Source of the DNA: Pseudohongiellaceae bacterium | GTDB lineage: Bacteria > Pseudomonadota > Gammaproteobacteria > Pseudomonadales > Pseudohongiellaceae | Direction: 5' to 3' | Assembly: GCA_044338855.1 (NCBI GenBank) | Contig: JBIIWP010000002.1 | Coordinates: 3,796 to 67,795 of the forward strand | Length of the DNA: 64,000 nucleotides | Part shown: positions 1 through 18,512 of the stretch, in pieces | Numbering within the stretch: the first letter of the stretch is position 1 | Layout of the letters: each line of letters opens with the position of its first letter | Program-made: the position numbers and the translations under genes | The notes under the pieces: model-generated | Seen by the model: the letters and a program-made list of their open reading frames with translations, nothing else | The model's database searches: none | What the model was told of the DNA's origin: nothing

Positions 1-1078
1 GTGGCACCAGCGCCGTGCGGAACGAGCCCATCAGCAACAACACCACCAGGCTGACCAGCAGGATCGTCTCGAACAGCGTGGTGAAAATCTCGCGCAGCGA
101 ATCGCGCATGTAGCGGGTACCGTCCTCGACAATGCGGATTTGCAGTCCCGCGGGCAGCGCCGCGTTTATCTCGGCGAGCCTCACATACAGCGCATCGCCG
201 ATTTCGATTTCGTTGGAGCCGGGCATGGGCCAGATCGCCAGATAGATCGTGGTGTCCTGATCAAGGCGGGCGATATCGCTGCCGCGCGTCTCACCGATCT
301 CAACACGCGCCACATCACCCAGACGCAGCACCGCGCCGCTGCGCTGCACCACCACCAGATTGCGAAAATCCTCCGCGGTCTGCAGCGTGGCATTGCTCAA
401 CAGGTTGTACTGCTGGGTGGCGTTCTCGGTCTTGCCTACGGTAGCGATGACGTTGTTGGCACGAATCGCCGCCAGCACTTCGTCGGCGCCCAGGTCCAGC
501 GCGGCCAGCCGCGCCGGATCGATCCACACACGCATGGCCGGCGCGCGGCCACCGGAGATATCCACCCGCTGCACGCCTTCGATGCCGGCCAGCAAGGGGT
601 TCACCTGGCGTTCCATGTAGTCCGTCAGTTCCTGGCGGCTCCAGCCCTCGCCCACCACGTCGAGATAGAACAGCGCGTTGGAGCGGTCGGCACGCACGAC
701 TGCGACGGCGGGATCTTCGGCGCCGTCCGGCAGTTCATAACTGATCTGGGCCAGGCGCGTGGTGAGCTCGGCCAGTGCGCGGGTGCTGTCGGCCTCCAGA
801 TCCAGCCAGGCGGTGACGCGGCTGCTGCCGGCTGTAGTTGTGGTATCGACATAATCCAAGCCGGGGATCGTCATCGCCACCTTTTCGATCGGCTCGGTGA
901 TGAAGCCCTGCACCACATCGGACGAAGCGCCGAAGTAAACCGTCGTGATCTGCAGCGACGTGCTTTCGATCTGCGGGAACTGCAGTACTGGTATCGCACG
1001 GGTCGCAAAGATGCCGGTCAGCAGGATGGCGATGGAAATGACCAGCGCCAGCGTGGGGCGCTTGACGAAGATGTCCAT
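1..1078 (-). CDS. RND (AcrB/HAE1-type) efflux permease, N-terminal ~359 codons; gene continues past the window start
   Basis: Absent from the ORF track because it has no stop in the window. Reverse translation from ATG at 1078-1076 gives MDIFVKRPTLALVISIAILLTGIFATRAIPVLQFPQIE..., a typical RND TM1 plus periplasmic porter start. Its ATG overlaps the TGA of the upstream adaptor gene (TGATG). Confidence 0.85.
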   Translation of the reverse strand, partial: MDIFVKRPTLALVISIAILLTGIFATRAIPVLQFPQIESTSLQITTVYFGASSDVVQGFITEPIEKVAMTIPGLDYVDTTTTAGSSRVTAWLDLEADSTRALAELTTRLAQISYELPDGAEDPAVAVVRADRSNALFYLDVVGEGWSRQELTDYMERQVNPLLAGIEGVQRVDISGGRAPAMRVWIDPARLAALDLGADEVLAAIRANNVIATVGKTENATQQYNLLSNATLQTAEDFRNLVVVQRSGAVLRLGDVARVEIGETRGSDIARLDQDTTIYLAIWPMPGSNEIEIGDALYVRLAEINAALPAGLQIRIVEDGTRYMRDSLREIFTTLFETILLVSLVVLLLMGSFRTALVP

Positions 1079-2193
1079 CAGGGGGCCTCTCCCGCCGCCA
1101 TGACGCGCTCACCGATGTAAACCTTGAGACCTTCATAGAGTTTGAAGGCCCCGGCGGCCGCAATGCGCGTGCCAGGCTGCAGGCCTGAGCCGTCTTCCAG
1201 CACGGCACCGGCCTCCGTTATGGCCCGCACGCGCACCTGACGGCGCTGGGCGCGCCAGACACCTTGTTCCTGTGCATCAGCATTCAGCTCAAAGACATAC
1301 TGCCCCAGCGGATCGTTCTGCAGCGCCTGCGCCGGCACCAGCAGCAGGGTTTCGCTGGTACCGACCGGTACTTGCAGTTCCACAATCGTGTGTGGCGCGT
1401 GGCGGCCGCCGTCGTTGCGTACACTGGCGCGATAGCCGCGGCTGCGGTTGGCTGCTTCCAGTATCGTGTTCTCGGCAATGATGGTCGCCGTGACCGGCGC
1501 GCTGCCGTCGTCACCGACGACGTCCACCACGAGCGTGGTGCCGGCGTTCAGGCGCGGATAGAACTGCGGCACCTGGAAGTCCACCCACATCTCGTCGCTG
1601 TCGCCGATCAGGCTGGTGATCAGCGTGTTCGCCTCCAGATACTGGCCGACCTCGAAGTTGTGCAGGCCTGCGAGACCAGCGAAGGGCGAGCGCAGCGTCT
1701 TCTTCTCGATAGTCCGTTCGAGCACGGTGATCTCCGCCTCGGTTGCCGTCAGCGTGGCGCGCGCCTGGTCCAGCAGTTCCTGCGTGGCAACGCGCTTCTC
1801 CAGCAGTTCCTGCTGGCGCTCGAACTGCAGCCGCGCCAATTCGGCGCGGGCGCGTGCCGCGCGCAGGTTGGCCTCTTCGACGGCGATGTCGAGCTGCAGC
1901 AGCACCTGACCGGCCGCCACGCGCGCGCCCGACACGAAATTCACCGCGACGATGGCGCCAGCCAGCTCGTTGCGCAGATCCAGCCGCCGCGGTGCCACCA
2001 GTTCGCCCATGACATTGAGCGTGGCCGCATACGGCATGGCGCCGACCTCCACCGCTTCCACGGTTTCGGCCGGTTCCGGATAGGCCTCACCGGCGGCAAT
2101 GCCGGCACGGATCTCGGCCACCTTGTACGCGGCCAGGCCACCGAAGACGGCGAGACAGATGCCCACGGTGAGTGACCACTTCAGGAAATTCAT
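1078..2193 (-). CDS. RND efflux periplasmic adaptor (membrane fusion protein, HlyD_D23 type)
   Basis: N-terminal anchor MNFLKWSLTVGICLAVFGGLAAY, a coiled-coil hairpin (LRAARARAELARLQFERQQELL) and a beta-barrel C-terminus. Translationally coupled to the RND permease. Confidence 0.85.
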   Translation of the reverse strand: MNFLKWSLTVGICLAVFGGLAAYKVAEIRAGIAAGEAYPEPAETVEAVEVGAMPYAATLNVMGELVAPRRLDLRNELAGAIVAVNFVSGARVAAGQVLLQLDIAVEEANLRAARARAELARLQFERQQELLEKRVATQELLDQARATLTATEAEITVLERTIEKKTLRSPFAGLAGLHNFEVGQYLEANTLITSLIGDSDEMWVDFQVPQFYPRLNAGTTLVVDVVGDDGSAPVTATIIAENTILEAANRSRGYRASVRNDGGRHAPHTIVELQVPVGTSETLLLVPAQALQNDPLGQYVFELNADAQEQGVWRAQRRQVRVRAITEAGAVLEDGSGLQPGTRIAAAGAFKLYEGLKVYIGERVMAAGEAP

Positions 2194-2366
2194 GTGCTGC
2201 GCTCCTTGGCTCCGCGGCGCCCGCTTGCGGGGCTGGGTGGGCGCCTGCAGCGCCCCACGGAAAGTACTGGCTTTACGAAAGGTTGCAGCATGCGGACTGC
2301 CACGGGCTGCAAACGGGGAGGAACTCTAGAGGAAACCGGCGGTGGCGGCCAGCAGGCAAGTGATTT

Positions 2367-3785
2367 TCACCACAGGCTGGCACTGAGCTCGACATAGAAA
2401 AAGTCCGAATCGCGTGCAGCCGCACCGGTGGCAGCGCGCTGACGTGCCTGCACGAAGTCCCCCAGCCACATGTGCGCATAACCCAGGGTCAGCGCCAGGT
2501 GCGGCAAGGGTGCCACGCGCGCGCGGAGGTCGAACTCGTCGCCAAGATCCCGGCCGCTGGCACCACTGGCGTCACGCGCTGCGGTACCGCCACCCAGCAG
2601 GTTCGGAAAGCGGTCGCGGGCACTGTCGAGGCGATAGCGGCTCAGACCGGCGTCCATGCGCAGGCCCGGCAGCGGCGTGAATTCCAGACGCAGTTTGTCG
2701 CTGATGAGATTCTCGAACACGATGTAGTCGTTGGCCGACCAGGGTCGCGCAAACCCGAAGTAGCGTTCGAAGCGGTTGTTTGCCGCATCGGTCGGCGAGC
2801 GGTCGCCTTCGGCCGCGGCGTGGAACCAGCTGAGTCGCGGCTGCCACGCGTGTTGCCAGCGATAGCCCAGCTCGGTGGTGAAGGCACGAGCATCCTGTCG
2901 GCGGCCGGCATCGCTGCCGTACTGCTCCAGCAGCGCCAGATCGTAGTCCACACCACTCGCAGCGATCCTGCCAAAGGCGCGCAGCCCCAGCGTGCGCACA
3001 TCACGCGCCACGAAGCCGTTGTCTGCCGCAGGGGTCTGGCGCAGGCGCAGGTAGTGGGGCTCCAGCACCGTCCATGCCGACCAGCGCCGCCAGGTGCCCA
3101 CCACCACATCGAGACGGCGCGCCGCGTCGCCATCGTCCTGCGTCGTGAGCTTGCGTTGTACGGGATGCAGGCGCATCGCGTCCAGTTGCCAGTCGTTGTG
3201 CTGGCTGCCGAGGGTCAGACGCAGGCCATCGAAGTTGTTGCTGGTATTGCGCCATTCATTGCGCGCCACGAGGCGCCGGTCCAGCAGCTCGAAGGCCAGG
3301 CGTCCGCCACGCAGACGCAGCGGGCGCGCGTTGCCGCGGGCATCTTCACCCAACAGCGCGGGCCACTGCAGCTCGGCAAAGGCCTGGATGGGCTCCACTT
3401 CGTTGACGTCGCGATCATCGCGCGCAAAGCGGCTGTGGTTGCGGCGCGCGTCTTCGATCTCCACCACGAACTTCAGCGGCGTATCCGGCAGCTGCAGGCC
3501 TGCATACAGTCGCGTACGCAGCAGCAGCGGATCGTCGAGTCCATTGGCCAGCGGGCGACGCAGGTCGTCGTCGCGGTATTCGTAGCGCAGTCGGTAGTCC
3601 AGGCCGAGCTCCAGCCAGGCCGGGCCTCCCTGCGTGCCGAGGTTGCGCACGTAGCGTGGCGGGTCGGTCTCGGGCTGGGTGCCGTAGCTGAACGAGTCGG
3701 CAAACCAGCTCTGCTGGGCTGCCACTGAAAAGGGTGCCAACAGCAGCATCAGGCTGCATGGCAGACGCAGGTAATTCAAAGACAT
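2367..3785 (-). CDS. Outer-membrane beta-barrel, alginate-export (AlgE-like) family
   Basis: ORF 2367..3797 starts at GTG. The internal ATG at 3785 gives the signal peptide MSLNYLRLPCSLMLLLAPFSVAAQQ. It has an alternating beta-strand pattern, a YRLRYEYRDDD motif and a C-terminal aromatic residue (ELSASLW). Family call is from memory. Confidence 0.5.
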   Translation of the reverse strand: MSLNYLRLPCSLMLLLAPFSVAAQQSWFADSFSYGTQPETDPPRYVRNLGTQGGPAWLELGLDYRLRYEYRDDDLRRPLANGLDDPLLLRTRLYAGLQLPDTPLKFVVEIEDARRNHSRFARDDRDVNEVEPIQAFAELQWPALLGEDARGNARPLRLRGGRLAFELLDRRLVARNEWRNTSNNFDGLRLTLGSQHNDWQLDAMRLHPVQRKLTTQDDGDAARRLDVVVGTWRRWSAWTVLEPHYLRLRQTPAADNGFVARDVRTLGLRAFGRIAASGVDYDLALLEQYGSDAGRRQDARAFTTELGYRWQHAWQPRLSWFHAAAEGDRSPTDAANNRFERYFGFARPWSANDYIVFENLISDKLRLEFTPLPGLRMDAGLSRYRLDSARDRFPNLLGGGTAARDASGASGRDLGDEFDLRARVAPLPHLALTLGYAHMWLGDFVQARQRAATGAAARDSDFFYVELSASLW

Positions 3786-3882
3786 GATGAGGGGCACTTC
3801 CGGGAAAGTGCCGCATTATGGCGGCTGCTGAAGCGCCGGCTAACCAACTATTCCTGCAAAGCTTAGCAGCAGAACGGGAAAC

Positions 3883-5214
3883 TCAGTGCTTCGCCAGCTC
3901 ATCTACGTTGATACTGTCCGGATCCTTGAAGGCGCGCTCCAGCTGGGCATGATCCAGCTGCCCCATCCAATGCGCCATCATCAGCGTGCCAATGCCGTTG
4001 CCGGCGAGGTTGGTCAGCGCGCGCGCCTCCGACATGAAGCGGTCGATACCGACGATCAGTGCAATGCCGGCCAGCGGGATCACGCTGTCGAACGCAGCGA
4101 GTGACGCTGCCAGCGTAACGAGCCCTGCTCCGGATACACCGGCCGCGCCGTTCGACGAGATTGTCATGAACAGCAACAGCCCGATCTGCGTCATCAGCGG
4201 CACATCGATGCCGAAGGCCTGGGCGATGAAAATCGCGCCCATCACCATGTAGATGGCGGTACCGTCGAGGTTGAACGAGTAACCGGTCGGAATCATGAGG
4301 CCGGCCACCACACGTGGCACGCCGGCCGCTTCCATTTTGGCCAGCATGCGCGGCAACACGGTCTCCGATGACGATGTGCCCAGCACGATCAGCAGCTCGT
4401 CCTTGATGTAGCGCAGGTAGCGCACGATGCTGAAGCCGGACCAGTAGCACACGGGACCGAGGATGAGAAAGAGATACAGGATGCAGCTGAGGTAGAACGT
4501 CAGCATGAACAGCCCCAGTGAGCCGAGAATCTGGGCGCCGTATTCCCCGATGGTGAAGGCCATGCCGCCCATGGCACCAAGCGGTGCCGTCCACATCACG
4601 ATGCGGATGATGCCGAACAACACGCCGGAAACCAGATCCAGCGCCTGCTCTGCGGCACGCGCCCGTTCGCCGCCCATGATCGCGATGGAACATCCTGTGA
4701 GCACGGCCAGCACCAGCACCTGCATCAGCTGCGTACCGACGAAGGCGCCGACGAAGGTGTCCGGTACCAGATCCAGCAGGAAGTCCGTCATGCTGGTACC
4801 GGCGACAGCGCCGGCACTGCGCAGCGTAGCCTCGGCTGCCGAAGCATCGAAGCTGGCCACATCGAGATCGAGCCCGGCACCAGGCTGCAACACGTTGACC
4901 ACAACGAGGCCGATGCCGATGGCGAAGACGGTGGTCAGGTTGTAGTAGATCACCGCACGCAGCGCGAGGCCCCCGGCGCGGGCCAGATCACCCATGCTGG
5001 CGATGCCAGCAGCCACGGTAGCGAAGATGGTAGGGGCGATCACCAGCTTCACCAGCTTGATGAAGAGATCCGCCATCCATTTCATGCTGGAGCCGATGGA
5101 CGGTGCGAGCACGCCGATAAGGATGCCGGTGCTGATACCGACAAGCACCCAGAAGTACAGGTGATGCCAAAGTGGCTTGCGTGCGGAGGGTTGGCTGGCT
5201 GGGGCCTGTGACAT
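3883..5214 (-). CDS. dctA: C4-dicarboxylate:cation symporter DctA (DAACS family)
   Basis: Colinear by eye with E. coli DctA: FIKLVKLVIAPTIFATV, LGTSSSETVLPRML, PTGYSFNLDGT, RFMSEARALTNLAGNG. Start chosen at ATG 5214 (MSQAP...); the ORF extends to 5292. Confidence 0.9.
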   Translation of the reverse strand: MSQAPASQPSARKPLWHHLYFWVLVGISTGILIGVLAPSIGSSMKWMADLFIKLVKLVIAPTIFATVAAGIASMGDLARAGGLALRAVIYYNLTTVFAIGIGLVVVNVLQPGAGLDLDVASFDASAAEATLRSAGAVAGTSMTDFLLDLVPDTFVGAFVGTQLMQVLVLAVLTGCSIAIMGGERARAAEQALDLVSGVLFGIIRIVMWTAPLGAMGGMAFTIGEYGAQILGSLGLFMLTFYLSCILYLFLILGPVCYWSGFSIVRYLRYIKDELLIVLGTSSSETVLPRMLAKMEAAGVPRVVAGLMIPTGYSFNLDGTAIYMVMGAIFIAQAFGIDVPLMTQIGLLLFMTISSNGAAGVSGAGLVTLAASLAAFDSVIPLAGIALIVGIDRFMSEARALTNLAGNGIGTLMMAHWMGQLDHAQLERAFKDPDSINVDELAKH

Positions 5215-5402
5215 GGCAGATATCCCGAAAAATGCAGCCGAAGAATAAGCAGATGCCCCGTCGGCGTCCAGCCTCGCCGCCCTTTCATACAATTGAATCT
5301 GCTAAGTAACGCTTACTTTCTTGGTTCGGGGTGCCTTGGGCGGTGGGTAGAGTGGCGGCCGTTGCTTGACTCTAAGCCCTTTTGAAGGACCCAGGACCCA
5401 AA

Positions 5403-7784
5403 ATGAAGAATGTCTACCGCTTCGCCGCGCTGGCACTGTCGTCCGGCGCAGCCCTCTCCGCATTCGCACAAACCGCTGCCGCACCGGCACTCGCTGCCCC
5501 TGCCGGCAACCTGCTGGTTGCTGCCAGTGGCATCGCCATTGAGGAAGTGCGCGTCACGTCCCGTCGCCGCGAGGAGCTGGCACAGGAAGTACCGATCCCC
5601 ATCACCGTGGTCAGCGGTGCACTGGTGGCCGACACCGGTGGCTTCAACGTGAACCGCATCAAGGAGCTGATCCCCTCGGTACAGCTGTACTCGTCGAACC
5701 CGCGCAACACCGCCATCAGTATCCGCGGCCAGGGCACCACCTTCGGTCTCACCAATGACGGCATCGATCCGGGTGTGGGCTTCTACATCGACGGCGTGTA
5801 CTTTGCGCGCCCTGCCATCACCACGCTGGACTTCATCGATGTGGATCGCATCGAAGTGCTGCGCGGCCCGCAGGGCACCTTGTATGGCAAGAACACCACG
5901 GCTGGCGCCTTCAACGTCACCACGCTGAAACCGCAGTTCGAGAATGACGCGCGCGTGGAATTGAGCGCGGGCAATTTTGATTTCGCGCAGATCAAGGGCA
6001 CAGTGACCGGCGGCCTCAGCGACAGCGTGGCCGGCCGCCTGTCGTTCACCTCCACCGAACGCGAAGGCAACATCAGGAACGTAGTGACGGGGCAGGATCT
6101 GAACAACCTGGAAAACTGGTCGCTGCGCGGCCAGCTGCTGTGGGAAGCCGGTGAAGGCACCGACGTGCGCCTCATCACCGAGCTGTCGCGTCAGGATCCC
6201 ACGGGCTATGCCCAGGTCTTCGCAGGTTCAGTCCCGAACAAGCGCTCCGCCTATCGCCAGTTTGAATCCATCATCGCCGATCTTGGCTATGCACCACCGA
6301 GCCGCGATCCCTTCGACCGTGTCGTGGACCACAACAGCGAATGGCGTTCGGGCAATGACATCGGCGGGGCTTCGCTGAACATCGACCACGAGATCTTCGG
6401 CGGCACGCTGACGTCCACCACGGCCTGGTACTTCTGGGACTGGCGTCCGTCCAACGACCGCGATTTCCTCGGGCTCAACGCGCTGGCGCTGTCCCAGGCA
6501 CCTTCCGACCATGAGCAGCTGACGCAGGAATTCCGCTGGGCCGGCGACCTCACCGACAGCGTAAGCGGCGTGTTCGGCGTGTTTGCCATCCAGCAGGAGC
6601 TGCAATCCGACCCCGTGCACCGCGAAGAGCTGGGCCCTGACCAGTGGCGTTTCGTGTCGCCCAATGCCGCCAGCGCAGCGCAGTACCGTACGCCCGGCCT
6701 GTTCGACGGCTTCGGCACCGACAGCAGCCCCGGTCTTGAAACCTTCAGCGCGGCGGTGTTCGGCCAACTGGATTGGCGCCTGGGTGACAACCTCAGCCTG
6801 CTGACCGGCCTGCGCTTCAATTATGACGAAAAGGATGTGAACTTCCAGCGCACCCGCAGCGGTGGCTCGGTACTCACGGACCCCGCCCTGCTGGCCCTGC
6901 GCAATGCGCAGTACAGCAACCAGAGCTTCACCTCGAAGATCGATGACGACAACGTCACCGGTACGCTGACACTTAACTACGCGCTGAACGATACCGTGAA
7001 TGTGTACGGCACCTACAGCACCGGCTTCAAGCCAGTGGGCCTCAACCTCGGTGGTCTCCCGACCGACGCTGGCCGAATCATGACTGAACTGGCCGTGATC
7101 AAGCCCGAGTACGTGCAGCACCATGAACTGGGCGTGAAGACGACTCCGCTGCCCAATGCCTGGCTGAACTTCGTTGCCTACCAGACCGATATCGAGGACT
7201 ACCAGGCGCAGGTACAAACAGCCGACATCGCGGTTAACCGCGGTTACCTCGCCAATGCCGAGGAAGTGAGGGTGCGTGGCTTCGAGATCGACGGTCGCAT
7301 CGTGTTCGGCAACTTGTCGCTGCAGGGTGCCTATGCATGGACTGATGGCAAGTACGAGTCCTTTACGAATGCACCGCTGCCGCTGGAAGAAGTGGGTTCG
7401 CCGGTGGCGTTCAAGGATATCAGCGGTGGCCTGCTGCCTGGTATCTCGAAGAATGCCGTATCGCTGAGTGGCGAGTACGCGCGCCCGTTGAACCTGCTGG
7501 GCACAAATGGCGAGTTCTTCGCCGGGGTGGACAGCTACTACCGTTCGGACTTCTCGTCGAGCCCGTCGCCGTCGCAGTTTCTCAACGTGGCCGGCTACAC
7601 CTTGCTGAATGCGCGTCTGGGCTTCCGCACTGACGACAGCTGGTCGGCCTTCCTGTGGTCACGCAACCTTACGGACAAGGACTACTTCGAACAGCTGCTG
7701 CCGGGTGCCGGCAACTATGGCCACTATGCCGCCGTCCTGGGTGATCCGCGTACCTGGGGAGCAACAGTGCGCTACACGTTCTGA
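5403..7784 (+). CDS. TonB-dependent outer-membrane receptor (paralog 1)
   Basis: Signal peptide MKNVYRFAALALSSGAALSAFAQ, plug motif VEVLRGPQGTLYGKNTTAGAFNV, and a ~790-aa barrel ending in VRYTF. Confidence 0.9.
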   Translation: MKNVYRFAALALSSGAALSAFAQTAAAPALAAPAGNLLVAASGIAIEEVRVTSRRREELAQEVPIPITVVSGALVADTGGFNVNRIKELIPSVQLYSSNPRNTAISIRGQGTTFGLTNDGIDPGVGFYIDGVYFARPAITTLDFIDVDRIEVLRGPQGTLYGKNTTAGAFNVTTLKPQFENDARVELSAGNFDFAQIKGTVTGGLSDSVAGRLSFTSTEREGNIRNVVTGQDLNNLENWSLRGQLLWEAGEGTDVRLITELSRQDPTGYAQVFAGSVPNKRSAYRQFESIIADLGYAPPSRDPFDRVVDHNSEWRSGNDIGGASLNIDHEIFGGTLTSTTAWYFWDWRPSNDRDFLGLNALALSQAPSDHEQLTQEFRWAGDLTDSVSGVFGVFAIQQELQSDPVHREELGPDQWRFVSPNAASAAQYRTPGLFDGFGTDSSPGLETFSAAVFGQLDWRLGDNLSLLTGLRFNYDEKDVNFQRTRSGGSVLTDPALLALRNAQYSNQSFTSKIDDDNVTGTLTLNYALNDTVNVYGTYSTGFKPVGLNLGGLPTDAGRIMTELAVIKPEYVQHHELGVKTTPLPNAWLNFVAYQTDIEDYQAQVQTADIAVNRGYLANAEEVRVRGFEIDGRIVFGNLSLQGAYAWTDGKYESFTNAPLPLEEVGSPVAFKDISGGLLPGISKNAVSLSGEYARPLNLLGTNGEFFAGVDSYYRSDFSSSPSPSQFLNVAGYTLLNARLGFRTDDSWSAFLWSRNLTDKDYFEQLLPGAGNYGHYAAVLGDPRTWGATVRYTF

Positions 7785-7790
7785 AAAAAC

Positions 7791-8555
7791 TCAAAGCGCC
7801 AGCACCAGACTGCTGGCCTCCACTGCCGCCTGTGCCGGCATCCCCGGCTTCAGGCCATGGCCTTGCGCGGCAAAGCCCACCAATTGCAGGCCACCGGGCA
7901 GCTCCAGCGTGAGCTCGGTGTCCTGGCGCGCCGTACCAACGCGCGCCACCACGCCATCCAGCACGTTGACCCCTTCTGCTGCTTTGATGCGAGCTGCAAT
8001 GCGCACAGCAGCTGCCTTGCACAGCAGCACCAGCGTCAGCTGTTCGGTAAGGCCAAGCAACTCCGCGCTTTCCCGCGTGATGAGAGACACCAGACGCTGG
8101 CCACCGGCGAGCTTGAGCTGCACCGCCACAGCTTCGCCACGTTTGGGCACACGTACCACCACGGCTGGCAGCTGGTTGCGCATGCTGGTGCGGAGGTTGA
8201 GCCGCTGCAGAGACTCCAGCACCGGCGCTGCGCCCGCCTTGCGCGAGAACTGCTGCAGCACCTGGTCTTTCATCGCCTGCATGCGCAGGGAGGCTTCCAG
8301 CAACTGCTCGCCTTGTTCGGTAAGACGCGCACCACCGCCGCCACTGCCGCCCACGGCTTTCTCGATGAGCGGCGCGCCCGCGAGGTTGCTGAGCGTCTCC
8401 AGTGCATGCCAGGCGGCCTTGTAGCTGATGCCGGCATCGCGTGCCGCCTGCGAAATGGAGCCCACCTCGCGAATCCGGCGCAGGATATCGATGCGCTTGT
8501 CTGCTGCGGTATGCCCCAGCGCGCTGTCGAGCGCTCCCTTCTTGTCCCTGCCCAT
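7791..8555 (-). CDS. modE: Molybdate-responsive transcriptional regulator ModE
   Basis: HTH DILRRIREVGSISQAARDAGISYKAAWHALETL plus GGSGGGGARLT, followed by two Mop/TOBE repeats (TSMRNQLPAVVV..., NVLDGVVARV...). Colinear with E. coli ModE. Confidence 0.85.
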   Translation of the reverse strand: MGRDKKGALDSALGHTAADKRIDILRRIREVGSISQAARDAGISYKAAWHALETLSNLAGAPLIEKAVGGSGGGGARLTEQGEQLLEASLRMQAMKDQVLQQFSRKAGAAPVLESLQRLNLRTSMRNQLPAVVVRVPKRGEAVAVQLKLAGGQRLVSLITRESAELLGLTEQLTLVLLCKAAAVRIAARIKAAEGVNVLDGVVARVGTARQDTELTLELPGGLQLVGFAAQGHGLKPGMPAQAAVEASSLVLAL

Positions 8556-8587
8556 GCTTGACCCCGATTTGATCGCGCTATACCTTT

Positions 8588-8612
8588 GCGCTATTCACGA
8601 CATGAATAGCGC
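8588..8612. promoter_or_regulatory. Perfect palindrome GCGCTATTCA-N5-TGAATAGCGC, candidate ModE operator (Mo-box-like)
   Basis: 10-bp perfect inverted repeat in the 66-bp modE / TonB-receptor divergent intergenic region. The CGCTAT...ATAGCG arms span 23 bp, similar to the CGnTATAT-N-ATATAnCG geometry of known ModE sites. Extra GCGCTAT copies lie at 8575-8581 and 8609-8615. Confidence 0.6.
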
Positions 8613-8621
8613 TATTGAAGC

Positions 8622-10979
8622 ATGTTTATCCTGCGTCGCTGCTTGCTGACCATCCCGGCCCTGCTGTTGCCGCTTGCTCTCGCGCCGGCAGCGTGCGGAG
8701 CGGAATCCGGCGAGGGTCCGCGTATCGAGACCATCGAAGTCTCGGCGCGCCTGCGCCGTGAGGACGCGCAGCGCGTGCCGCTGGCCATGTCCGTGGTCGG
8801 TGGCGACACGCTGCAGGCCACCAACACCATCAACGTGTCGCAACTGACACAGCTGGCGCCCAGCCTCAACTTCTCGTCGCCCAATCCGCGCAATACCGCG
8901 CTCACCATTCGCGGGCTCGGCAGCAGCGTGGTGGCTGTCGCCCAGGCCAATGACGGGCTGGAACCCGGCGTGGGCTTCTATGTGGATCAGGTGTACCACG
9001 CCAGGGCGGCCACGGCCGTGTTCGATTTTCTCGATCTCGAGCAGGTGGAAGTGCTGCGCGGCCCACAGGGCACACTGTTCGGCAAGAATACTACGGCTGG
9101 TGCCCTCAACATCAGCACCCGCAAGGCCAGCTTCACGCCGGACGCGGCTGTCGACCTCACCAGGGGCTCCTTCGGTTACGAGCAACTGCGCGTGTCGGTC
9201 AATGGACCACTCGTGGAGCAACGCCTGGCCGGGCGCCTGTCCCTGCTCAGCAACCGCCGCGATGGCCTGCTCCATAACACGCGCACTGGCCAGCGCCAGA
9301 ACGATGTGGACAACCAGGGTGTGCGCGGCCAACTGCGCTTCACGCCGTCGGCACGCTTTACGCTGGACCTTGCAGCAGACCACTACGTCATCGACAGCAA
9401 CTGCTGCACGCAGGTGCACCATGTCGTCGGCGCGAGCCTTCGTCCTGCTGCACGGCAGTATCCCGCGCTCGCTGCGGCGCAGGCCTATGCCCCTGCCTCT
9501 ACCGATCCCCATGCGCGCCTGACCAACATCGACGCTCCGCTGCAGGTGATGAGCAAGGAAGGCGGGCTGAGCGCCGTGGCGGCGTGGACCCTGGAGCGGC
9601 ATGTGCTGAGCTCCGTGAGCGCCTGGCGTTTCTGGGACTGGCTGGCTGCCAATGATCGCGACTTCACGGGGCTCGGCATCCAGACCCTGCAAGGCATTCC
9701 GTCGCGACAGGACCAGTACAGTCAGGAACTGCGCATCAGCAGCACCGGCGCTGACGGGTTCGACTATACCGCAGGGCTTTATGCCTTCACGCAACGCATC
9801 GAGGCACAACCGACCACGGCCTATGGCCCGCTCGCGGCATTCTGGCTGCTCGGCCCCGAACCGCAGATTCCCGCCAACCTGCTCGACGGTTACCGCAGTG
9901 ATGCCAGTACCCGCTTCGACTCCGACAGCTACGCCGTGTTCGCCGAAGGCGTGTTCCATCTGCCGGCCAATATCGATCTCGCGACCGGCCTGCGCTACAC
10001 CTGGGAAGACAAGCAAGGCCGCTTTTCCTCGGCAATCTCCGGAGGTCTTGCCACCAGCGACCCCGAGCTGCAACGTCGCCAGCGGTCGATACTGCATGCG
10101 CAGGACTATGCGGCAGCCGTGAGCGAAGACAACGTCTCCGGACGCCTCAACCTGTCCTGGCAGGGTCATGCGCAGTTCATGCCTTACCTGAGCTGGGCGC
10201 GCGGCTTCAAGTCCGGCGGCATCAACATGTCGGGGCTGCCGCTGACGCCGGACAACCTGCCCGCGCTGGCCACCGCCAGGATCGATCCGGAAGAAAACAC
10301 CACGCTGGAGATCGGCTTCAAGAGCCAGTGGCTGCAGGACCGCCTCAGCATCAACGTGGCCGGCTTCCGCACGCGCGTGCGCGACTTCCAGGCCAACGTG
10401 ATCGACAGCGGGCCCGGCGCGCTGCGTGGCTACCTCGCCAACATTCCCGAGGTGCGCGTGGATGGCGTGGAACTGGACCTGGCCTTGGCCCTCAGCGAGT
10501 CCCTGTCCGCAACGCTTTCCGGGGCGTGGACCGACGGGCGCTACCAACGCTATCCCAACGCGCCCTGCCCGCTCGAACGGACCGGCAGCCCGCTGGCCAC
10601 CTGCGATCTCTCCGGCACGCCACTGGCCGCGCTGCCGAAACAGGCGCTTTCGTTCGGCGCCCAGTACACGCGCCAGTTTGCCGCAGCGGGGCAGCGCGGA
10701 GAGCTGTGGCTGCGCGGCGATCTTGCCACCCGCAGCGCGATGAGCGGCGAAACCTCCAACTCGATCCATACCCGGCTGCCGGCACAGCAACTGGTGAACC
10801 TGATGCTGGGCTTCCGCAGCAGCGAAAACTGGGAGCTGACCCTGTGGTCGCGCAACCTGCTCGACGAGCAATACCTGCATAGCGTGACGGTGCAGGCCGG
10901 CAACTCCGGACTGGTGCTGGCCTTGCCGGGCGAGCCCCGCATCAATGGCATGACCCTGCGCCTGGTTTTCGGCAGCTGA
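8622..10979 (+). CDS. TonB-dependent outer-membrane receptor (paralog 2), divergent from modE
   Basis: Signal peptide MFILRRCLLTIPALLLPLALAPAACGA and plug motif VEVLRGPQGTLFGKNTTAGALNI. Clearly paralogous by eye to the 5403-7784 protein (PNPRNTA..IRG, DG..PGVGFY.D.VY.AR). Confidence 0.9.
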   Translation: MFILRRCLLTIPALLLPLALAPAACGAESGEGPRIETIEVSARLRREDAQRVPLAMSVVGGDTLQATNTINVSQLTQLAPSLNFSSPNPRNTALTIRGLGSSVVAVAQANDGLEPGVGFYVDQVYHARAATAVFDFLDLEQVEVLRGPQGTLFGKNTTAGALNISTRKASFTPDAAVDLTRGSFGYEQLRVSVNGPLVEQRLAGRLSLLSNRRDGLLHNTRTGQRQNDVDNQGVRGQLRFTPSARFTLDLAADHYVIDSNCCTQVHHVVGASLRPAARQYPALAAAQAYAPASTDPHARLTNIDAPLQVMSKEGGLSAVAAWTLERHVLSSVSAWRFWDWLAANDRDFTGLGIQTLQGIPSRQDQYSQELRISSTGADGFDYTAGLYAFTQRIEAQPTTAYGPLAAFWLLGPEPQIPANLLDGYRSDASTRFDSDSYAVFAEGVFHLPANIDLATGLRYTWEDKQGRFSSAISGGLATSDPELQRRQRSILHAQDYAAAVSEDNVSGRLNLSWQGHAQFMPYLSWARGFKSGGINMSGLPLTPDNLPALATARIDPEENTTLEIGFKSQWLQDRLSINVAGFRTRVRDFQANVIDSGPGALRGYLANIPEVRVDGVELDLALALSESLSATLSGAWTDGRYQRYPNAPCPLERTGSPLATCDLSGTPLAALPKQALSFGAQYTRQFAAAGQRGELWLRGDLATRSAMSGETSNSIHTRLPAQQLVNLMLGFRSSENWELTLWSRNLLDEQYLHSVTVQAGNSGLVLALPGEPRINGMTLRLVFGS

Positions 10980-10990
10980 AGGCGACGGGC

Positions 10991-11395
10991 TCAGCGTGGC
11001 GCAGTGTCATGCAGATTGCCCTGCGGATGCAGTATCTGCGCCGCCAGCCCAAGCTCAGCGGCGGCCCGTTGTAGACGCTGATCGCGGGTCCACAATCCTT
11101 GCGTGCCGCCAAGCGCCACTGAGGCCAGCAGGTGCGCATCCACCCACCCAATGCCTTTGCCCATCAGGCGCCGGCGCTCGATGAAGAACAAGGTCTCGGC
11201 ATTGCTGGCGCAGCGGCAAGGCGGCAACCGCTGCAGCAGGGACAGCACCTCTGAGCGGTTGCGCAAGTTGCCACAGGCGAGCTCGCCGAGTACCCAGGGA
11301 TGCATCAGCACCTCTCCCAGTTCCAGATGCCACACCAGCGCAGCATCCCGCGCGCGCAGGTGCTCGATCCACACGGACGTATCGACGAGGATCAT
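10991..11395 (-). CDS. vapC: Type II toxin VapC (PIN-domain ribonuclease)
   Basis: MILVDTSVWIEHL with the conserved Asp5 of PIN domains, ~130 aa. Has an ATGA overlap with the upstream small antitoxin gene. Confidence 0.8.
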   Translation of the reverse strand: MILVDTSVWIEHLRARDAALVWHLELGEVLMHPWVLGELACGNLRNRSEVLSLLQRLPPCRCASNAETLFFIERRRLMGKGIGWVDAHLLASVALGGTQGLWTRDQRLQRAAAELGLAAQILHPQGNLHDTAPR

Positions 11396-11589
11396 GCGCG
11401 GCCACCCTGACGACGAGGGACATCGTCGAGTTCCGGCTCACTGCCGCCGAGCAGCGCAAGACGTCGCGAACTTTCGCGCTCGATCAGGACTTCCAGTGCC
11501 AACCGCACCAGGGCGGTCTTTTCCGTCAGTCCCGTCAGGCGTCGGGCAGTTTCCAGCAGGTCTTCGTCCAGGTTGAGCGTCGTTCGCAT
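11392..11589 (-). CDS. vapB: Type II antitoxin VapB (DUF2191-like)
   Basis: MRTTLNLDEDLLETARRLTGLTEKTALVRLALEVLIERE is typical of VapB antitoxins. ATG at 11589 is preferred over the TTG at 11628 in the ORF track. Confidence 0.75.
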   Translation of the reverse strand: MRTTLNLDEDLLETARRLTGLTEKTALVRLALEVLIERESSRRLALLGGSEPELDDVPRRQGGRA

Positions 11590-11763
11590 GTCGATGGCCT
11601 CTTGAGATGCGCCTTTATAAGGCATCAAATGATGCTACCGTGAGACATCCATCGTCAAGCCGCCCCCGGAAATCAGGGTTGGCGGAGGCAGGAAGTTCTG
11701 GCCAAATAGGGTGAATGGTTGCGGCTTGCGCCGGCACCCGACTCCAGCTGCAGAGGTGTCATC

Positions 11764-12543
11764 GTGAAGAAGGCCCGCCTGGTGGTAGCACTGCTCGTGT
11801 TCTGCACGCTGGCCACCACGCTGTTCGCCCAACGCGGTTTCCGCCGCGGCATGATGGCTCCCACGCCCGGCCAGGCCGCAGCCGGCGCGCCAGCCGAGTG
11901 GACCTTCGCGCGTCTGGCCTATGACAGTGCAGGCATGCGCGGTGGCAGCTGGTGGGTGGACTACCCGGGTGCCGAGTATCACCTGTCGCAGGCAGTCGAT
12001 CGCCTCACGCTGGTCGACCCGCATGAAAGCGGGCATGTCATCAGCCCCGACGATGATGCGATCTTCGACTACCCCTGGCTCTACGCCGTGGAGCCCTGGA
12101 GCTGGAGCTTCAGCGATACCCAGGCGCGGCGCCTGCGCGAGTACTTCCTGCGCGGCGGCTTCATGATGGTGGACGACTTCCACGGCGAGCAGGAATGGCA
12201 GCTGTTCATGACCGGGCTGCGCAGGATCTTCCCGGACCGCGCGGTCGAAGACATCCCGGAGGAGGACGCCATAAACCTGATGCCATACCAGACCACCCAG
12301 CGCCTGCAGGTGCCAGGCCCCAACTACATGAGGGGCGGGCTAACCTACGAACGCAGCGACGGCATCACGCCACACTGGCGCGGCATCCGCGACGAGGATG
12401 GTCGCTGGATCGTGGTGATCTCGCACAACATCGACTACGGCGAAGGCTGGGAGCAGGCCGACACACCGGAGTATCCCGAGCCGTTTACACGGCAGGCCTA
12501 CGAGATCGGCATCAACTACCTGATCTACAGCCTGACACACTGA
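11764..12543 (+). CDS. Secreted DUF4159-domain protein
   Basis: GTG start preceded by GAGG. Signal peptide VKKARLVVALLVFCTLATTLFAQ, then FARLAYDS...GGSWWVDYPGAEYHL...YPWLYAVEP...LREYFLRGGFMMVDDFHG, which resembles the DUF4159 pattern as I recall it. Confidence 0.55.
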   Translation: MKKARLVVALLVFCTLATTLFAQRGFRRGMMAPTPGQAAAGAPAEWTFARLAYDSAGMRGGSWWVDYPGAEYHLSQAVDRLTLVDPHESGHVISPDDDAIFDYPWLYAVEPWSWSFSDTQARRLREYFLRGGFMMVDDFHGEQEWQLFMTGLRRIFPDRAVEDIPEEDAINLMPYQTTQRLQVPGPNYMRGGLTYERSDGITPHWRGIRDEDGRWIVVISHNIDYGEGWEQADTPEYPEPFTRQAYEIGINYLIYSLTH

Positions 12544-12557
12544 AAACAGCATGGCAC

Positions 12558-13622
12558 CTAGCCAGGCTTTGACCGATGACCAAGGCCGATCCACTTGGCC
12601 CCGCGCCCTTTGCCCAGCGGCATGATCAATCCTTCCGTTTTCATCGCTCGCAACACCAATCGCACCATGTCACGACTGACGCCGGGACAGGCCTCTTCAA
12701 TTTCGGAAATCGAGAATGGCAGATTGCGCTTGAGAATTTCAGCACGCACACGCTCACCCTTGGCACCGCGTCCGCGCCCGATTGTGCCAACCCGCTCCCC
12801 GAATTCCTTGTAGGCGCGCAGCAGTGCGCCCCAGAAGTAATCGAGCCATGGAGCAATGTTGTGTGCTGCTTCGTGCCAACCCTGTGAGCTCACTTCCAGC
12901 GTCTCGTAGTAACTCTCCTTCGACTCCTCGAAGATGCGCTCCAGGCTGATGAACCGCCCCACAGCGTAGTCGAAGTGGTAGAGCAGTTGCAGAGTGAGCA
13001 GCCGCGCCATGCGTCCGTTGCCATCGGGAAAGGGATGGATGCACAGGAAGTCGAGGATGGCCAGCGGCACCAGCACCAGGGGATCAGCCAGATGCTGATC
13101 CAGCGCGGTTCGATAGCGTGTGATGAGATCCGTCATCGCCATCGGAGTGAGATGCGCGGCCACGGGCTGGGAGCGGATACGCGTACTGCCATCAGGTTGT
13201 CGTTCGATGATGTCGTTGTTGGTGGCCTTCCAGTGGCCGCCTGGTTGGGGCATGTAGCGGTACAGGACGCTGTGCAGTTGGAGCACTGTGCCCTCGGACA
13301 AGGGCATCTGGGCACCGCTCTCATGGATGAGAGCCAGCGCATCACGATAGCCGGCTACTTCCTGCTCGGACCGGCTCTTGGGCACGGCGTTTTTGAGGAC
13401 CAGCGATTTCAGTCGCGCCGCAGAGACGACCACCCCTTCGAGTCGGTTGGATGACTCGGTCGACTCGACCACTGCAACCTGCCGCAAGTCACTGAGCACT
13501 TCGGGCGATTGGGCGACATACAACTGTTGCTTGCCCCGGTACTCGCCCAAGGCACGCAAGGTGGCCAGTTGCCGGGCATCAAAGCGCAGCTTGGCGAGGT
13601 AGTCGGGCGAGAGTGAGTGCAT
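12558..13622 (-). CDS. Fic family protein (class II, AMPylase-type core with C-terminal winged-helix)
   Basis: Canonical Fic motif HPFPDGNGRMARLL. An N-terminal inhibitory-helix motif SNRLEG matches (S/T)xxxE(G/N). C-terminal wHTH-like tail (ISEIEEACPGVSRDMVRLVLRAMKTEGLI). Confidence 0.85.
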   Translation of the reverse strand: MHSLSPDYLAKLRFDARQLATLRALGEYRGKQQLYVAQSPEVLSDLRQVAVVESTESSNRLEGVVVSAARLKSLVLKNAVPKSRSEQEVAGYRDALALIHESGAQMPLSEGTVLQLHSVLYRYMPQPGGHWKATNNDIIERQPDGSTRIRSQPVAAHLTPMAMTDLITRYRTALDQHLADPLVLVPLAILDFLCIHPFPDGNGRMARLLTLQLLYHFDYAVGRFISLERIFEESKESYYETLEVSSQGWHEAAHNIAPWLDYFWGALLRAYKEFGERVGTIGRGRGAKGERVRAEILKRNLPFSISEIEEACPGVSRDMVRLVLRAMKTEGLIMPLGKGRGAKWIGLGHRSKPG

Positions 13623-13642
13623 TTGCGCGTCACAGGTGGCGG

Positions 13643-13717
13643 AAATGGGGTAATCCTAGCCAATAATAGGGTATTTACCAAGCCAATTACCCCAATAAAA
13701 GACTGGTTACCCCATTT
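13643..13717. promoter_or_regulatory. Iterated TGGGGTAA(T) motif array / 11-bp inverted repeat in the fic-MFS divergent region
   Basis: AAATGGGGTAA (13643-13653) and its exact reverse complement TTACCCCATTT (13707-13717). A third inverted copy ATTACCCCA lies at 13686-13694 and a degenerate copy TAGGGTATT at 13667-13675, all within an AT-rich stretch. Confidence 0.5.
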
Positions 13718-13816
13718 ATTGCCACTCCCTGCCTTCCGCTTCTTTGGGTTCACGCATAGCTGGCAGCCTGTCACCCCATCGCCTATATTGCCGTGAAAAG
13801 TTAGAAGCGGTACCTC

Positions 13817-15010
13817 ATGAACACTCCCCCTGCGCTTTCCCCGACCAGCGGTCCTGGCTTGCGCCTGCTGCTGGCCATCCTCATCGTGGCACTGAACCTG
13901 CGTGGTGCCGTCACCAGCGTGGGGCCGCTGTTGGACCTGATCCAGGCGGAAATGGCGCTCTCATCCGCCGCGGCCGGCTTTCTGGCGTCACTGCCGCTGT
14001 TTGCTTTTGCGTTTGTCTCGCCTTATGCGGCGGTGCTGGCGCGGCGCATCGGCCTGGAGGCTGCGATCTTCACCTCCCTTCTGACTTTGCTGGCCGGCAT
14101 CGCGCTGCGTCATGTCGAAGGGCCGTTTTTCCTGTACACCGGCACGGCCTTCATCGGCATCGGCATCGCCATCAACAACGTGCTGTTGCCAGGCTTGTTG
14201 CGCCGCGAATTCCTGCTGCAGTTGCCGCTGGTCACGGCACTGTTCACGATGGTGCTGGTGACAGCGGGTGGACTCGGCTCCGCCCTGGCGATTCCGCTTG
14301 AATCCCTCGGAGGCTGGCGTCCATCGCTGCTGGCCTGGCTGCTGCCGGTGCTGATCGGCCTGGTGGTCTGGGCACCGCGCCTGCGTCACAACACGCGACC
14401 GCAGGCACCGCCGCAGGGGCGCACCTCGCTGTGGCGCAGTCCCATCGCGTGGCAGGTGAGCCTGTTCATGGCCTGCCAGTCCACCGCCTTTTACGTGATG
14501 ATCGCGTGGCTGCCGAGCCTGTTGGCCGATCTCGCCGGCATCAGCCCGGCACGCTCCGGCTGGATCCTCTTCATCTACCAGATCTTCGTGCTGGGCGGCG
14601 TCATGGGCGTGCCGGTGCTGGTACATCGCTTCGATGACCAGCGCTGGATCGGTGCCGGCTGCGCCAGCCTCATCTTCATCGGCTACGCGGGACTCTTGTT
14701 TGCTCCAGCCGACGCGCTGTTCTGGTTGAGCATCATGGGGGTCGGTGCCGGCGGTTCGCTGGTGCTGGCGATGACCTGGTTCGGCCTGCGCGCCAGCTCT
14801 ACCGGACAGGCAGTCGCCCTGTCCGGCATGGCACAGGCCATCGGCTACCTGGTGTCGGCGTTTGCGCCCATCCTCGTGGGTTGGCTGCACGACAGTACCG
14901 ACGGCTGGACCCTGCCGCTGCTGCTGATGCTGGGCTTTGCCGCTACCCAGGTCTGCATGGGTTTTCTGTCGGGCAGAAGGCGGACAATCGGGGAAGTTCA
15001 GCCGTTGTAG
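13817..15010 (+). CDS. MFS transporter, CynX/NimT-like
   Basis: 12 predicted TM segments. N-terminal LNLRGAVTSVGPLL motif typical of CynX-type MFS proteins. Confidence 0.75.
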   Translation: MNTPPALSPTSGPGLRLLLAILIVALNLRGAVTSVGPLLDLIQAEMALSSAAAGFLASLPLFAFAFVSPYAAVLARRIGLEAAIFTSLLTLLAGIALRHVEGPFFLYTGTAFIGIGIAINNVLLPGLLRREFLLQLPLVTALFTMVLVTAGGLGSALAIPLESLGGWRPSLLAWLLPVLIGLVVWAPRLRHNTRPQAPPQGRTSLWRSPIAWQVSLFMACQSTAFYVMIAWLPSLLADLAGISPARSGWILFIYQIFVLGGVMGVPVLVHRFDDQRWIGAGCASLIFIGYAGLLFAPADALFWLSIMGVGAGGSLVLAMTWFGLRASSTGQAVALSGMAQAIGYLVSAFAPILVGWLHDSTDGWTLPLLLMLGFAATQVCMGFLSGRRRTIGEVQPL

Positions 15011-15582
15011 ATGAGGCCGCCCTTGCTGGCGTACTCCTGCAGGATCGCTGCCGCATCGGCGCGCAACACGTCGCGCATTACCGTGATGCCGCGCTGCTCC
15101 AGCGCCTGCTGCCACTCGGGCAACTTGTCGCCTTCGTCAAAGCCGATGGCACGTGCATCCGCATCGCGCGCACCGCATACCAGCCGCGTGACGCCAGACC
15201 AGGGCACGGCGCCAAAACACATGGCACAGGGTTCCGTGCTGGTGACCAGCTCACAGTCGAACTTGCCAGCGTCACCCAGGTCGTAGCGGCCCAGCGCCTT
15301 CTGCGCGAGCGCAATCGCCACCATCTCGGCGTGCAGCAGCGAGCACTGCGCTGGCTCCACCAGGTTCACGCCCACGGACAGCAGTTCATGCTCCGGCCCG
15401 AATACGGCTGCTGCAAAAGGTCCACCGCTGCCGCGCCGTACCTGCTCGCGCGCGAGACCCAGCACGAACTGCATGCGGGCTTCCACACTGAAGAGAACGA
15501 GATTGGCAGGCACACGCTGGCGCACCCAATCAGGCAACTGGAAACTGAAGTCGGTGGCGGGCGAGGTGTTGTGCGGAGCCAA
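14998..15582 (-). CDS. CDA-fold nucleoside/nucleobase deaminase (zinc-dependent)
   Basis: Zinc motifs HAEMVAI and PCAMC, ~190 aa. Its convergent 3' end overlaps the MFS gene by 13 nt. Confidence 0.75.
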   Translation of the reverse strand: MAPHNTSPATDFSFQLPDWVRQRVPANLVLFSVEARMQFVLGLAREQVRRGSGGPFAAAVFGPEHELLSVGVNLVEPAQCSLLHAEMVAIALAQKALGRYDLGDAGKFDCELVTSTEPCAMCFGAVPWSGVTRLVCGARDADARAIGFDEGDKLPEWQQALEQRGITVMRDVLRADAAAILQEYASKGGLIYNG

Positions 15583-15602
15583 GGCCGGACCTTCCAGCAG
15601 GC

Positions 15603-16088
15603 TCAGGGCAACACCACTTCACCGATGAAATTTTCCGACATGAGGTAGCCGCGATACCAGATGCGGAACTTCATGTTGCGGGTCGGGCTGAACGGCGGTT
15701 TCAGCTCGCCGGTGAACAGCGGGACCTCGTCGCAGCCGCCTTCGCTGCGCTGCTCCAGGGTGCCGGAATGGATCTGCAGCGCGAGGTCGTAGTAGCCCAC
15801 CGGCGTGGTCAGCAGGTTGGTCTGCCGCAGCGTGGCGCGGATGCACTTGCGTCCCGAGTTGGTGACTGTGGGCGCGGTACTGATGCGGCGGTTGCCGGAA
15901 AGATCGACCGTAATCGGCAACCACAGGTTGTTGTCGGCAAGACGCGGCTGGCCCAACTGGATGCCACCCACGGACTGCAGGAATTCCCAGCTGACCGACG
16001 GATCGACCACGGCACGCATGGAAGTACTGGAGCAGGAACCCAGCAGCAGGGCTGCGGGCAGCAGGAACAGGGCGCTGAATGTCTTCAT
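15603..16088 (-). CDS. Lipoprotein of unknown function
   Basis: Signal peptide with lipobox MKTFSALFLLPAALLLGSC. No family recognised. Lies 20 nt upstream of the deaminase on the same strand. Confidence 0.6.
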   Translation of the reverse strand: MKTFSALFLLPAALLLGSCSSTSMRAVVDPSVSWEFLQSVGGIQLGQPRLADNNLWLPITVDLSGNRRISTAPTVTNSGRKCIRATLRQTNLLTTPVGYYDLALQIHSGTLEQRSEGGCDEVPLFTGELKPPFSPTRNMKFRIWYRGYLMSENFIGEVVLP

Positions 16089-16260
16089 CTTGGCTTTCCT
16101 GGTGAGGCTCCCCGGAGGAAGCGTGTGCGGGGATTATAGTGAATATGCGCTGACAGCACAGCGCGGCAGCAGACCAACACAGTAAGGTACCAGGGTTGGC
16201 TGGCTGTCAATTGCGGTAGTATTGCGCACCAATATCCCCGGGCAACAGGAACCTCCACAC

Positions 16261-18444: not shown

Positions 18445-18512
18445 TCTGAAGAGACCTCTGGCAATACGCTCAGTCGTCGAGAAAAGGCTCGGTCTTTACC
18501 AACGACTTCAGC

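Follow-up and report, generated by a model that had tools for sequence, protein, structure and literature searches.

In the textbook view, molybdate crosses the outer membrane passively and all specificity of its uptake lies in ModABC. Why, then, does a gene for a TonB-dependent receptor stand back to back with modE, the gene for a molybdate-responsive regulator, in a Pseudohongiellaceae bacterium, with a perfect palindrome in the short spacer between them? The two genes lie in the 64,000-nt stretch of DNA analyzed here (the window; contig C184, positions 3796–67795, of a 3.19-Mb assembly of 190 contigs with 60.8% G+C, hereafter G000). We propose that the palindrome serves the neighboring ModE as its operator and that it mediates molybdenum (Mo)-dependent repression of both the receptor, here named TBDR-A, and modE itself, a reading to which we give a probability of roughly 0.72. 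That the palindrome is a ModE binding site is very probable, mainly because orthologous receptors carry canonical ModE operators (Mo-boxes) at the equivalent position; binding and the direction of regulation are what we infer from comparing sequences.

The features of the locus are collected in Table 1. The first-pass annotation of this stretch had described the palindrome, the spacer and the half-sites and had named the two genes; re-read from the sequence, all of its coordinates proved right, and so did both gene calls, as ModE aligns end to end with its E. coli namesake and the receptor has a Plug domain and a barrel. Positions 8553–8555, read as their reverse complement, give the start codon of modE, and the receptor ATG is at 8622. 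The spacer between them reads GCTTGACCCCGATTTGATCGCGCTATACCTTTGCGCTATTCACGACATGAATAGCGCTATTGAAGC and has a G+C content of 48%, vs. 62.5% window-wide, and the 3′ edge of the palindrome is 9 nt from the receptor ATG. Within the palindrome CGCTAT-N11-ATAGCG is perfect, which gives the CGnTAT...ATAnCG inverted arms of a Mo-box, and the site can also be written CGCTATTCA-N5-TGAATAGCG, with TATTC half-sites. At the half-site that overlaps the right arm, TGAATAGCGCTATTGA forms a second palindrome of 16 bp with one mismatch. The extra half-sites may help ModE to bind cooperatively, or they may be what is left of tandem boxes such as those found in genome G014.

Table 1. Features of the modE–receptor locus in the window, and operators read before orthologous receptor genes and before modA in other genomes (MAG, metagenome-assembled genome; wHTH, winged helix-turn-helix)
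Feature	Position	Strand	Sequence or remark
modE–receptor divergent control region	8556..8621	.	66 bp, common to both genes
Perfect 10-N5-10 inverted repeat	8588..8612	.	GCGCTATTCA-cgaca-TGAATAGCGC; arms 8588–8597 and 8603–8612, cgaca 8598–8602
Palindrome core, putative 23-bp variant of the ModE operator (Mo-box)	8589..8611	.	CGCTATTC-N7-GAATAGCG
Extra GCGCTAT half-site	8575..8581	+	direct repeat 13 bp upstream of left arm, without inverted partner
Extra GCGCTAT half-site	8609..8615	+	overlaps right arm; direct repeat, 21 bp from left arm
Candidate sigma-70 promoter of receptor gene	8558..8586	+	TTGACC 8558–8563, 17 nt, TACCTT 8581–8586; by eye, weak
modE	7791..8555	-	254 aa, wHTH and two Mop/TOBE; Pfam HTH_1, TOBE; NCBIfam PRK10676, ModE_repress, Mop
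TBDR-A, TonB-dependent receptor	8622..10979	+	785 aa; Pfam Plug 49–161, TonB_dep_Rec_b-barrel 338–746
TBDR-B, paralogous receptor	5403..7784	+	37% identical to TBDR-A; convergent with modE; context, no Mo-box
Operator, G013	before receptor		CGTTATAT-TCAAATGG-ATATATCG, 24 bp
Operator, G006	before receptor		CGTTATAT-TTTTTTGA-ATATATCG, 24 bp
Operator, G018	before receptor		CGTTATAT-TCAAAAAT-ACATAACG, 24 bp
Operator, G014, tandem copy 1	before receptor		CGCTATAT-TCAACAGG-ATATAGAC, 24 bp
Operator, G014, tandem copy 2	before receptor		CGCTATAT-TCAAATGG-ATATAGAA, 24 bp
Operator, G011	before receptor		CGCTATTC-CGTTGAT-GAATAGCC, 23 bp
Operator, G004	before receptor		CGCTATAC-TAAAAAG-GAATAGCG, 23 bp
Operator, G019	before receptor		degenerate TATAT-N8-ATACA within larger palindrome, variant
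Operator, Nevskia MAG	before receptor		CGTTATAT-GCTCATGT-ATATAACG, 24 bp
Operator, Hyphomonadaceae MAG	before receptor		CGTTATAG-TCTAGTCC-ATATAACG, 24 bp
Operator, Sphingobium aromaticivastans	before receptor		TGCTATAT-ACGATTAT-ATATAGCG, 24 bp
Operator, Novosphingobium sp. FKTRR1	before receptor		GGCTATAT-ATGATCGT-ATATAGCG, 24 bp
Operator, Blastomonas natatoria	before receptor		CTATAT-N8-ATATAG, 24 bp
Operator, two Sphingomonas genomes	before receptor		CGTTATGT-N9-ATATAACG, 25 bp
Operator, G013 and G006	before modA		CGCTATAT-TGGATCGG-GAATAACG
Operator, G018	before modA		CGATATAT-CCAAAAAG-ATACAGCG
Operator, Nevskia MAG	before modA		CGATATAT-AAAGCACC-TAATATCG

The published E. coli-type consensus is CGnTATAT-N8-ATATAnCG, 24 bp from CG to CG (TAT-N12-ATA), and the operator has also been given as atCGnTATATA-N6-TATATAnCGat (PMC545781). 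We compared the receptor operators with these by reading the sites by hand and by counting patterns, and found orthologues outside the genus by scanning GTDB representative genomes with the receptor alignment. TBDR-A orthologues with Mo-boxes show 46–51% identity within the genus, where each orthologue in this range has such a site, and 46–52% overall. Their boxes lie 11–35 nt upstream of the start in the genus and 8–50 nt before the start codon throughout, except in the Hyphomonadaceae MAG, where the distance is 135 nt. When the genus was scanned for the 24-bp pattern, one mismatch being allowed, 10 places were found, vs. 1 for the reversed control pattern, and one of these is a box at a receptor fragment in G001. 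More distant relatives of the receptor (34–42% identity) in Acidobacteriota and Bacteroidota gave no match to the searched patterns at the equivalent position.

Two further receptor orthologues have variant palindromes upstream, CGTATGAA-N6-TTCATACG (L024, 2340–2500) and ACGGATAT-A-ATATCCGT (L004, 1410–1455), both with a GTATCCAAA motif near the start codon; these may represent a further operator variant. Elsewhere in G004 the Mo-box-like 24-mer CGCTATCTACCGGTTTATATACCG occurs twice, 155 bp apart (L117, 1501–1524 and 1656–1679; G004:C100:22477–22655), where two open reading frames meet that jointly resemble one split TonB-dependent receptor, an arrangement that may stem from an insertion, a duplication or an assembly artefact.

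Across the orthologues the operator arms are constant in sequence and show no covariation, and the spacers differ. As it is the sequence of the arms and not their pairing that is conserved, the comparison fits a protein site rather than an RNA helix. This bears on an alternative that we regard as very unlikely, namely that a different regulator, and not ModE, occupies the palindrome, or that the palindrome forms a hairpin in the 5′ leader of the receptor mRNA and masks the ribosome-binding region. The perfect 10-bp RNA stem, which would end 9 nt before the AUG, the minimum free energy of −18.5 kcal/mol for segment 8570–8640 and the presence of the box in a genome with no detectable ModE (G011) all speak for such an explanation. 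Yet the region folds with a z-score of only −1.2, 25 of 200 shuffles folding as well, and the orthologous sites are A+T-rich, with 8-nt arms around non-complementary spacers of 7–9 nt. The motif furthermore matches both the ModE consensus and the modA operators, which makes another regulator unlikely. A search of positions 1–20000 against Rfam, at E-values up to 1, returned no known RNA family.

The same kind of box is found before modA in four genomes (G013, G006, G018 and the Nevskia MAG), and in two of them, G013 and G006, its right arm GAATAACG is the GAATA-type (TATTC) half-site of the window. In G004 and G014 no box was evident at modA. The receptor has a modE-type gene as its neighbor in at least five different layouts, among them the following: full-length modE is divergent from the receptor in the window; short genes for the ModE N-terminal domain are divergent from it in G014 and G001; in Sphingomonas sp. 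R86520 full-length modE follows the receptor gene within one operon, starting 3 nt past its stop codon; and an HTH_1 gene lies just upstream of the receptor in Sphingobium. The proposal of the first-pass annotation that ModE controls the receptor thus gains support from the orthologue Mo-boxes, the modA boxes, the TATTC half-site in two modA operators and the recurrence of the 23-bp geometry described below. In Blastomonas natatoria DSM 3183 (L026), the receptor has a Mo-box but no modA (TIGR01256) match was found at E-values up to 1e-20, and molybdate may enter the cytoplasm of this species by another transporter.

Could the palindrome be a product of chance, without function? Beyond its small size nothing speaks for this, and the comparative data, with equivalent sites kept by the orthologues, effectively exclude it. 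Even with three mismatches allowed, the window contains the palindrome pattern a single time, and none of 100 shuffles contains it. In the whole 3.19-Mb genome, CGCTATTC-N7-GAATAGCG has a single match at zero mismatches, and the runners-up, with three mismatches, are as common as for a reversed control pattern and fell in coding DNA in all four cases inspected. GCGCTAT is present in 7 copies in 64 kb, where 7.7 are expected, and 4 of the 7 lie within 41 bp; as the total matches chance, it is the clustering that carries the signal. Perfect inverted repeats with 10-bp arms occur at four loci of the window. Two are terminator-like hairpins (A-run, G+C-rich stem, T-run) and a third is at 63870; the fourth, the palindrome at 8588–8612, sits in a promoter spacer.

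At least 24 metagenome runs from lakes contain the locus, and the population lives in lake water. In one such run a strain variant has three substitutions in the spacer (8571, 8572 and 8599), none of them in the arms or the extra half-sites, a pattern consistent with constraint that by itself is not significant (p about 0.16). Over positions 8300–8900, the variant co-occurring in run X15 differs at 8343, 8538, 8571, 8572 and 8599, and a second variant in this run differs at several receptor codons (8649–8723).

The 23-bp geometry of the window is seen again upstream of the receptor gene in two genomes, G011 and G004, and in the latter also upstream of modE. Together with the 25-bp sites of Sphingomonas, this means that Mo-box spacing varies by lineage. 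Within the genus, full-length ModE is found only in G000 and G004, the two proteins being 52% identical to each other, and in both the receptor operator is of the 23-bp class. Where the boxes are of the canonical 24-bp form, the genomes encode only proteins of 120–200 aa that match the ModE N-terminal domain. The sample is small (two genomes vs. five), and it suggests that operator geometry goes with regulator type. A stand-alone protein of about 126 aa, with the winged helix-turn-helix of the ModE N terminus but without Mop domain, is encoded in G013, G006, G018, G014, G001 and G009 (for example L138, 1438–1818, minus strand); such an N-domain protein is all that most genus members possess, yet their modA and receptor genes carry canonical 24-bp boxes, and a separate Mop protein may perhaps sense molybdate there.

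About 40 nt upstream of the modE ATG in G004 lies CGCTATTC-CTGAATG-GCATAACA, which supports autoregulation of modE. The first-pass annotation had considered this probable for the window; given the shared spacer and the site in G004, we grade it as plausible.

The position of the site relative to promoters bears on the direction of control. With the weak promoter that we read by eye in the spacer, transcription of the receptor gene might start in the left arm of the palindrome, and the modE promoter, on the minus strand, must lie within or just beyond it. The simplest reading is that the receptor is repressed at high Mo and expressed at low Mo, which would parallel the modA sites of the relatives. 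It is distinctly unlikely that ModE-molybdate instead activates the receptor, whose task would in that case be one required while Mo is on hand and not scavenging. E. coli ModE does activate at moaA, dmsA and napF. ModE can act either way (PMC12327845), and a consensus promoter scan of the locus found none. The site, however, ends 9 nt before the ATG, in most orthologues it lies at or downstream of any possible −10 element, as expected of a repressor site, and its position mirrors that of the modA sites in the same genomes.

The regulator itself is well preserved. In its alignment to PRK10676, ModE of the window covers 18–252 of the 263 positions, with a score under the equivalog cut-off, and residues 18–253 align with E. 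coli ModE (1o7l) at an E-value of 1e-27. All six molybdate-ligand positions, as listed for E. coli ModE (PMC11672702), are kept (S126, R128, T163, S166, K183 and A184, within TSMRNQ, ITRESA and CKAA in the alignment). With a winged helix-turn-helix and two Mop/TOBE domains bearing these ligands, the protein has the make-up of the ModE family, and a genome-wide profile search found it to be the sole significant ModE_repress match in G000.

TBDR-A has a signal peptide and a TonB-box-like ETIEVSA, as read from the sequence, besides its Plug and 22-strand-type barrel domains, and is a TonB-dependent receptor by these features. It falls far under every curated NCBIfam cut-off, including those for ZnuD, OprC/copper, FhuA, FepA, BtuB and others; its best, sub-threshold family matches are siderophore and haem receptor models, and the nearest solved structures are remote generic siderophore receptors (best E-value 6e-14, over the plug). 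Seven TBDR-A orthologues without exception keep an adjacent C261–C262 pair and C649/C661 (a CP(L)...C pair); these cysteines are also present in the L010 group of receptors, have been lost in TBDR-B, and may form loop disulfides or a ligand site. Selenocysteine was considered because one TGA had been flagged inside three homologues; the two that were translated (L004 and L011) contain it as the terminal stop only, and the idea was rejected.

The TBDR-A family probably brings Mo across the outer membrane, as judged from the regulatory sites and the gene neighborhoods, and we infer the cargo (molybdate, tungstate or a Mo chelate) from regulation and gene linkage alone. A receptor controlled by ModE could also import something other than Mo or tungsten (W), such as another nutrient tied to Mo status, or iron or a siderophore for molybdenum cofactor and Fe–S enzymes. 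This we hold to be unlikely. The siderophore and haem models and structures just mentioned favor it, and no oxyanion site is identifiable in the sequence. On the other side, the receptor is tied to modE and to Mo-boxes across several orders, with the same box on modA, and other receptors under metal-sensor control carry the sensed metal (ZnuD with Zur, FrpB4 with NikR). By eye, no Fur-box-like sequence is evident in the spacer, for which no scan was run. No metallophore synthesis genes adjoin the receptor in the window.

Several observations weigh against an operator through which ModE represses receptor and modE. The first concerns geometry: the likeness to known ModE operators that the first-pass annotation had pointed out stands for the CGnTAT...ATAnCG arms but not for spacing or cores, as the site of the window spans 23 bp (TAT-N11-ATA) with TATTC and not 24 bp with TATAT. 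That annotation had also proposed a genome scan that takes in the region upstream of modABC. In G000 these genes lie on contig C81 (about 2951–5484), and no Mo-box was found upstream of them, which leaves out the classical target of ModE. The 23-bp box of G011, CGCTATTCCGTTGATGAATAGCC (L006, 1440–1462), stands in a marker-complete assembly in which no ModE homologue is detectable. Caulobacterales orthologues of the receptor (Brevundimonas and Phenylobacterium, 45–46% identity) are preceded by unrelated palindromes instead. A stricter consensus scan of 8400–8750 found no sigma-70 promoter, for which reason overlap of operator and promoter is argued only from distance, and none of the RNA runs searched contains the locus. 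Finally, homology gives no clue to the substrate of TBDR-A, pointing only to generic siderophore-type receptors. As to the side of G011, the divergent neighbor of its receptor is katG.

We also looked for other ModE targets in G000 and rejected the candidates obtained. Further perfect CGnTAT-N10..14-ATAnCG matches are all in coding DNA, for example in an flhA-like gene, and CGCTATTC-N6..9-GAATAGCG with up to three mismatches is as frequent as its reversed control, the four inspected matches being coding. With no box at modABC and no other intergenic site, ModE in G000 appears to regulate the receptor locally, acting only on this gene and on its own.

We suggest the following mechanism for the operator. 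When molybdate or tungstate is plentiful, the ModE dimer would bind the oxyanion through its Mop domains and clamp its two winged-helix domains onto the two CGCTATTC half-sites, where it would cover the receptor promoter's start region together with the upstream portion of the modE promoter and so repress both genes. Under Mo scarcity, the usual state of lake water, ModE would leave the DNA and the receptor would be made; using TonB energy, it would carry a Mo or W species, as free oxyanion or chelate, across the outer membrane to periplasmic ModA and then to the ModBC importer. Lake-water Mo is typically below 20 nM (PMC3440940), and we count the low-Mo lake habitat in favor of ModE-controlled Mo scavenging.

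Compared with the modA operator of E. coli, the locus has in common a full-length regulator with conserved ligands, CGnTAT...ATAnCG arms over the promoter or leader of an uptake gene, and the expected logic in which a molybdate-bound dimer represses uptake. It differs in its 23-bp site with TATTC half-sites, in a target that is an outer-membrane receptor and not modABC, and in a modE that shares the control region and is probably autoregulated. In Rhodobacter capsulatus, the ModE-family repressors MopA and MopB likewise act on Mo-boxes at several promoters (anfA, mopA-modABCD and others), one regulator's own included (PMC12327845). Their boxes have the canonical geometry, unlike that of the window. 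To our knowledge, the MopA/MopB regulon includes no TonB-dependent receptor.

TonB-dependent receptors under metal-sensor or related control are known for zinc (ZnuD, by Zur), nickel (FrpB4, by NikR), copper (OprC/NosA) and vitamin B12 (BtuB, by a riboswitch). As proposed here, they have a cytoplasmic sensor of a scarce nutrient that represses an energized receptor, and an ABC importer that completes uptake. Their substrates have been shown experimentally, whereas that of the receptor in the window is deduced, and the latter is not a close relative of any of them. We know of no demonstrated TonB-dependent transport of an oxyanion such as molybdate, or of its chelate.

Acquisition of Mo beyond passive diffusion through porins has a parallel in the catecholate "molybdophores" of Azotobacter vinelandii. 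This bacterium turns on TonB-dependent receptors in the absence of Mo and V via VnfA1 (PMC9542535), rather than by way of a ModE box at the receptor gene. Pseudomonas aeruginosa moves Mo past the outer membrane by means of IcmP, a protein of that membrane, and secreted ModA (PMC11734730), IcmP not being a TonB-dependent receptor. Our full-text literature search found no report of a ModE-controlled TonB-dependent receptor or of TonB-dependent Mo uptake. ModE, its operators and metal-sensor-controlled receptors are thus known; what would be new is a 23-bp ModE operator that places a receptor, and probably modE, under molybdate control.

TBDR-B, the paralogous receptor of the window, is 47% identical to the L010 group, and its gene has a leader unlike that of TBDR-A. 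TBDR-B and these relatives share a conserved leader, CTGCTAAGnAAnGC ... TTTCTTGGTTC ... about 20 nt ... TA(C/G)AGTGGCG (window 5285–5402; L010 3855–3990, minus strand; L011 140–256; L013 640–735). No Mo-box and no Rfam match was found in this leader, and its elements are not spaced like those of a sigma-70 promoter. The leaders of the relatives contain a sigma-54-like TGGCG-N7-TCGCA, which is shifted in the window.

A broader proposal, against which the odds stand somewhat, is that the TBDR-A family is the missing outer-membrane step of high-affinity Mo (or W) acquisition in freshwater and soil Proteobacteria, through TonB-energized import of an oxyanion or small complex, under ModE-type control with 23-, 24- and 25-bp operators that have co-evolved with regulator type (full-length or N-domain), and that ModE of G000 is a dedicated local switch with modABC outside its regulon. 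The hypothesis is testable in cultured carriers, namely Blastomonas natatoria, Sphingobium aromaticivastans and Sphingomonas spp., and the three operator classes with their different regulators would offer a natural series for the half-site spacing that a dimeric winged-helix sensor tolerates. If true, many environmental bacteria would spend TonB energy on capturing Mo (or W) at the low-nanomolar levels of fresh water, which would bear on Mo limitation of nitrate assimilation and of other processes that depend on molybdoenzymes.

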